From a phage, in the sequence record BH153096.1: DNA of 381 nucleotides. One strand, written 5' to 3'. The stretch's first letter is position 1. Each line of letters opens with the position of its first letter. The position numbers and the translations under genes were made by a program. The notes below the pieces were generated by a model. That model saw nothing but the letters and a program-made list of their open reading frames with translations. It was not told the DNA's origin and ran no database searches. Shown piece after piece: positions 1-174 of this stretch.

Positions 1-168
1 TGGAAGAGCCTTCAAAGGACAATAGAATTCAACAGGCAAACGCGACAATATGGTTATTAGACCGTCGCCTAACTCGTATAAAACGTATCACCGAGATATC
101 GAGTATTCGACAAGCTTTATAGGATCTAGTGGTGGGTAACGTAAACCTGGTATTTTAAATGATGTCGG
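1..168. other. Mirror image of an unidentified cloned insert adjoining the vector polylinker; origin and function unknown
   Basis: Contiguous with the vector image through a hybrid BamHI-position hexamer (window tctagg at 169-174, complement AGATCC). I recognise no family signature in the forward, reverse-complement, complement or reversed readings. Confidence 0.4.
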
Positions 169-174
169 TCTAGG

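Follow-up and report, generated by a model that had tools for sequence, protein, structure and literature searches.

The 381-nt window analyzed here, which is the whole stretch of DNA taken from sequence record BH153096.1, is a sequencing read of a laboratory clone that passes from a 173-base segment of gene 13 of coliphage RB49 into untrimmed pUC18-type vector. The two-part chimera is obtained when the window is complemented base by base, without reversal, and the positions below refer to this complement unless the record as given is named. The record is a plain complement of real DNA and not a reverse complement, and its stated 5′ to 3′ polarity is wrong. Neither of the given strands is biological, since one is the complement of the real molecule and the other its reverse. 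The comparisons presented below show directly that the sequence is chimeric, exactly where its halves are joined, what each half is, and that the polarity is wrong. The G+C content is 41% for the insert versus 57% for the vector part.

The window as given was compared with 72,556 plasmids using sensitive BLAST and provided no match. A local BLAST comparison (word size of 7) with two reference loci, the vector and RB49, returned noise only (E > 2), and a site scan found no pUC polylinker on either strand of the window as given. Because neither given strand is real DNA, the complemented letters were used as the query in all later searches. The sequence-only reading had held that the complement, rather than the reverse complement, was needed, and this was borne out by the hexamer AGATCC at 169–174 and by the lack of matches for the window as given. 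The polarity error may have arisen with the depositor or during preparation of the window, and the two are equally possible. A plausible cause would be complementation of the read for display of the coding strand, with the reversal omitted.

Several restriction sites appear in the record as given as mirror images. The apparent EcoRI site (25–30), HindIII site (112–117), and SalI site (292–297) of the given record are really CTTAAG, TTCGAA, and CAGCTG, respectively. The apparent BglII site (175–180) is the XbaI site of the vector.

The insert was identified by comparison with phage genomes. Positions 1–175 of the complement are identical at 175 of 175 bases to positions 82263–82437 of Escherichia phage RB49 (NC_005066.1), with an E value of 5.9e-90 in the local search. 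When the 173-base insert was used as the query against phage genomes, a match of 100% to RB49 was obtained (AY343333/NC_005066.1 82265–82437; E = 2e-83). An ungapped comparison showed that identity to the phage runs through position 175, the first mismatch appearing at 176. The portion that is phage sequence only, at 1–169, corresponds to NC_005066.1 82269–82437 of this Krischvirus with 100% identity and is antisense to gene 13. The matching gene is annotated as gene 13, neck protein/head–tail adaptor Ad2 (NP_891720.1). This result supplies the source of the insert and agrees with the earlier proposal that the sequence upstream of the junction is cloned insert and not vector. A search with the insert at distant sensitivity gave no match in plasmids or E. 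coli genomes, and the insert therefore comes from neither a plasmid nor the host.

Identity of 100% over the 173 nt is shared by eight Krischvirus records, namely two records of RB49 together with Sf20, kvi, AV108, vB_ESM-pEJ01, GoldenSnicker, and FL38. Since the eight records do not differ in this stretch of gene 13, the sequence alone cannot single out RB49 as the source of the clone. A random-clone survey of RB49 was reportedly carried out by Desplats et al. in 2002. With eight identical Krischvirus genomes, RB49 itself is a historically likely rather than a proven source of the clone. Desplats et al. 2002 is cited in PMC1524935.

A single fully open reading frame of 58 codons is present in the insert, on the strand opposite to the direction of the vector lacZ. 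The 58-amino acid frame occupies positions 1–174, including the shared positions 170–174, and corresponds to residues 120–177 of the 311 residues of gp13. The window holds only 58 of the 311 codons of RB49 gene 13, and these are antisense to the lacZ direction of the vector. Full-length RB49 gp13 was matched over residues 1–309 to the gp13 neck-protein chains 9mkb and 9lu4 of the PDB (E = 3.4e-132). The RB49 protein is thus homologous by sequence to the gp13 of the T4 family, and RB49 gene 13 is the homologue of T4 gp13. A scan of Pfam-A with the 58-amino acid fragment and with full-length RB49 gp13 (L002 1099–2031) gave no hit at E ≤ 0.01. The Pfam copy used appears to hold no model that detects RB49 gp13, though gp13 is a well-known T4 structural protein. 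A word-indexed protein search with the 58-amino acid frame returned no candidate; this search needs three shared words, and short queries can be missed. Given the 100% identity to RB49 gene 13 in the DNA search, the empty result reflects a limit of the index rather than a protein that is truly missing.

The remainder of the complement, at 170–381, matches pUC-type vector at 210 of 212 bases (99.1%), with E values of 4e-103 for the plasmid collection and 2.5e-107 for the local search. The pUC-derived record GQ149343 (locus L001) was used as the vector reference for the alignment. In this alignment the reference reads ...GAATTCGAGCTCGGTACCCGGGGATCCTCTAGAGTCGAC... where the complement of the window reads ...AAATTTACTACAGCCAGATCCTCTAGAGTCGAC..., with identity from G170 onward and none upstream. 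The remaining pUC18/mp18 polylinker was located by the site scan at 175–204 and is identical to the vector reference. The same scan placed the sites for XbaI (TCTAGA), SalI (GTCGAC), PstI (CTGCAG), SphI (GCATGC), and HindIII (AAGCTT) at positions 175, 181, 187, 193, and 199, respectively. These five sites follow the BamHI position directly, in this order and with a spacing of 6 bp. The polylinker was not found in natural E. coli lacZ in the comparison with E. coli genomes.

The lacZ alpha coding segment of the vector lies at 207–367 and is identical to chromosomal lacZ of E. coli. Matches were obtained in 5347 of the 5426 E. coli genomes, where chromosomal lacZ covers 207–367 (query positions 39–199) at up to 100% identity. 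The M13 forward primer sites are presumably contained within this segment, at 207–251. Chromosomal identity ends at 367, and only engineered pUC-type records reach 381. The final stretch, at 368–381, is a tail specific to the pUC backbone that follows the truncated lacZ alpha (CTGATGCGGTATTT in the vector) and is found in engineered pUC-type records. Because natural lacZ explains only 207–367, the segments at 170–206 and 368–381 are engineered sequence. A natural replicon carrying lacZ was rejected as the source since the polylinker is present.

The only mismatches within the 212 vector bases appear at 370–371, where the complement reads AG and the vector reads GA in CCTGATGCGG. This transposition of adjacent bases sits 11 nt from the end of the window and is probably an end-of-read base-calling or typing error.

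The HindIII site adjoins the lacZ alpha codons, and the EcoRI site adjoins the lac promoter in the reference vector. This arrangement is the orientation of pUC18 and not that of pUC19. M13mp18 was also considered as the vector. In M13mp18, lacZ continues beyond the corresponding point. This candidate was rejected because the lacZ identity stops at 367 and pUC-type records continue. The segment otherwise has the organization of vectors in the pUC18/M13mp18 orientation, with GATCC-XbaI-SalI-PstI-SphI-HindIII, lacZ alpha, and the pUC backbone tail matching at 210 of 212 bases. The window differs from pUC18 by the AG/GA transposition at 370–371 and by replacement of the EcoRI-SacI-KpnI-SmaI side and the first G of the BamHI site with the insert. 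The absence of that side of the polylinker had been recognized earlier, and the insert stands in its place. Derivatives of pUC18 that carry this same segment are indistinguishable from pUC18 here.

The two halves of the chimera meet at 169–175. Positions 169–174 read AGATCC, and the XbaI site TCTAGA begins at 175. The alignments identify the ligation junction as GATCCT at 170–175, which is common to RB49 (CCAGATCCTAAA) and to the vector (GGGGATCCTCTAGA). Upstream of 170 the vector reads GGTACCCGGG where the complement of the window reads CTACAGCCA, and the similarity ends there. Sequence belonging only to the phage ends at A169, and sequence belonging only to the vector starts at C176. The base preceding GATC is A169 in the window versus G in the vector, and the BamHI site is not regenerated (AGATCC). 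The RB49 genome carries GATC exactly at the breakpoint, within the hexamer AGATCC, and reads CCAGATCCTA/CCAGATCCTAAACC there. The hexamer AGATCC alone is uninformative. The abutment of two near-perfect alignments in the shared GATCCT is far beyond chance, and this shared segment is as expected from a 5′-GATC overhang ligated into BamHI-cut vector.

These results agree with the sequence-only reading that an insert–vector junction falls at the BamHI position of a pUC18-type polylinker, where a hybrid AGATCC stands in place of GGATCC. The match to vector begins precisely at G170, with none further upstream than 169/170, and the BamHI position is indeed where the junction falls. The insert had been assigned to 1–168; its foreign nature holds, and its boundary is adjusted, since the portion found only in the phage is 1–169 and positions 170–175 belong equally to phage and vector.

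At the other end, base 1 of the window directly follows a GATC of RB49 at 82438–82441, in the context TGAGATC followed by ACC (AGATCA). The surrounding 3,173 nt of RB49 contain 21 GATC sites, or one at 0.66% of positions, and the chance of the window starting in register with a GATC is about 0.7% (approximately 1 in 150). The case for a second GATC end rests on this coincidence, which suggests it; the far junction itself is not part of the window. The whole insert is suggested to be the 173 nt between GATC sites. Most likely the far junction was positioned exactly at the left edge of the window, where the read would have lost its leading vector up to and including the GGATC at the other BamHI half-site. 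The earlier view that the far junction lies outside the window is therefore refined, as it is probably right at this left edge and not far beyond it. One GATC within the insert, at 126–129, was left uncut and is also found in the RB49 genome in the context CTAGATCACC. The uncut site indicates a partial digest or incomplete cutting, with the insert made up of two adjacent fragments. A partial-digest genomic library or a subclone had been proposed previously, and the uncut internal site fits that proposal; the genome in question is that of a phage and not of a cell.

The sites at the two ends bear on the enzyme that was used. Four-base cutters of the Sau3AI/MboI/DpnII type and BstYI (RGATCY) fit the observed junction AGATCC. 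The alternative that a six-base enzyme leaving a GATC overhang (BglII, BclI, or BstYI/XhoII) was used instead of a four-base cutter draws on the fact that BglII and Sau3AI cannot be told apart from the AGATCC of the clone by itself, and on the match of BstYI to the phage site AGATCC. This alternative is considered improbable. Neither BglII (AGATCT) nor BclI (TGATCA) can cut at the junction because the hexamer there in RB49 is AGATCC. The AGATCA that abuts the start of the window is not a site for BstYI, BglII, or BclI, and thus only a four-base cutter fits both ends if AGATCA is the other end of the insert. An origin from BglII or BclI was rejected given a donor of AGATCC at the junction and AGATCA at the window start, and for BclI an A preceding GATC is never compatible. 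The GATC-compatible end postulated earlier is accordingly retained for enzymes of the Sau3AI type, and BglII and BclI, which had been named with it, are excluded because RB49 reads AGATCC. Dam methylation blocks MboI and DpnII but has no effect on Sau3AI, and Sau3AI would accordingly be the more likely choice of the three. The phages listed as carrying gene 42 (dCMP hydroxymethylase) do not include RB49 (PMC2993671). The T4 relatives without the gene 42 network are reported to be probably unmodified and open to cutting by Type II enzymes (PMC2993671). A restriction library from RB49 DNA is plausible because RB49 is unlisted for gene 42 and such T4 relatives can probably be cut.

The coincidence of GATC sites at both ends also favors ligation over a join of another kind, such as an in silico chimera produced by mis-assembly or concatenation, or illegitimate recombination in vivo between RB49 and pUC at GATCCT. 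The 6-base stretch at 170–175 that is common to both partners at the breakpoint would suit these origins, as such stretches are also seen at assembly and recombination chimeras. The breakpoint, however, coincides exactly with both the polylinker BamHI site and a GATC of the phage, and the other end of the window abuts a phage GATC as well. A plasmid of the pUC type is about 2.7 kb in size. These two independent GATC coincidences (approximately 0.7% per position on the phage side, and one site in the plasmid) are predicted by ligation and not by random breakpoints. In addition, exact 30-mers spanning the junction, in the real and in the as-given polarity, gave 0 hits in a viral contig collection. 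A join that is not a physical ligation is therefore given only a very slight chance. The specific case of an infecting RB49-type phage recombining illegitimately at GATCCT with a resident pUC plasmid is given an even slighter one, because the breakpoint is on the BamHI cloning site and both ends of the insert are at phage GATC sequences.

The window is thus very probably the read of a recombinant plasmid from a library of restriction fragments of RB49, or of an identical Krischvirus, in a pUC18-type vector. From the arrangement of the sequence we infer which enzyme was used, in which direction the clone was read, how the read was trimmed, and how the polarity error came about. Phage DNA would have been cut partially with a four-base GATC enzyme, most likely Sau3AI, and a 173-nt piece bounded by two GATC sites of gene 13 would have been ligated into the BamHI site of the vector. 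The clone would then have been read from the EcoRI, or M13 reverse primer, side, and the leading vector removed up to and including GGATC. With an insert of such small size, the read would have passed through it into the vector and continued for 212 nt of XbaI–HindIII polylinker, lacZ alpha, and pUC backbone. These trailing 212 nt would have been left untrimmed, and the plain complement of the read would have been stored.

In the reference vector, the EcoRI site is preceded by the M13 reverse primer site (CAGGAAACAGCTATGAC), with approximately 35 nt from the end of the primer site to the end of GGATC. A read from this primer would be predicted to arrive at position 1 of the complement near base 36 and at position 381 near base 416. 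As position 381 would be reached only at about base 416, base-calling errors such as the transposition at 370–371 are expected there. A read in the opposite direction would need a nonstandard primer beyond 381, since the forward primers are presumed to lie inside 207–251, and this points to a reverse-primer read. Gene 13 would be antisense in the proposed reverse-primer read. Stop codons interrupt the insert in the lacZ frame of the vector (complement frame 2), and its length of 173 nt is not divisible by 3, and so the clone would presumably be white in a blue/white screen. From the forward side the predicted clone would read HindIII...XbaI-GGATCT GGCTGT...GGTGATCC-CCGGG, with a far half-site of TGATCC that is not regenerated.

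Such a structure resembles known products of shotgun cloning. Junctions obtained by ligation of Sau3AI partial digests share the GATC overhang in BamHI-cut vector and the loss of the site when the 5′ base of the donor is not G. Reads from libraries of this kind likewise contain an uncut internal GATC and untrimmed vector at the end of the read. Record BH153096.1 differs from typical vector-contaminated records in that it is also in the wrong polarity, as a complement without reversal.

The window is an ordinary artefact of vector contamination combined with a polarity error and is not a biological feature. Nothing in it is new; a textbook clone junction, untrimmed vector, and a fragment of a gene from a publicly complete phage genome are all already known. 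Cloning vector accounts for 212 of the 381 bases, and at most positions 1–175 are from the phage and duplicate the complete RB49 genome. Because the polarity of the record is wrong, vector screens of the BLAST type and homology searches on either strand find nothing. Analyses that treat the window as natural sequence would be misled, and no biological question hangs on it. Its practical use is limited to marking a record for database clean-up and to illustrating how records stored only as the complement escape strand-aware vector screens.
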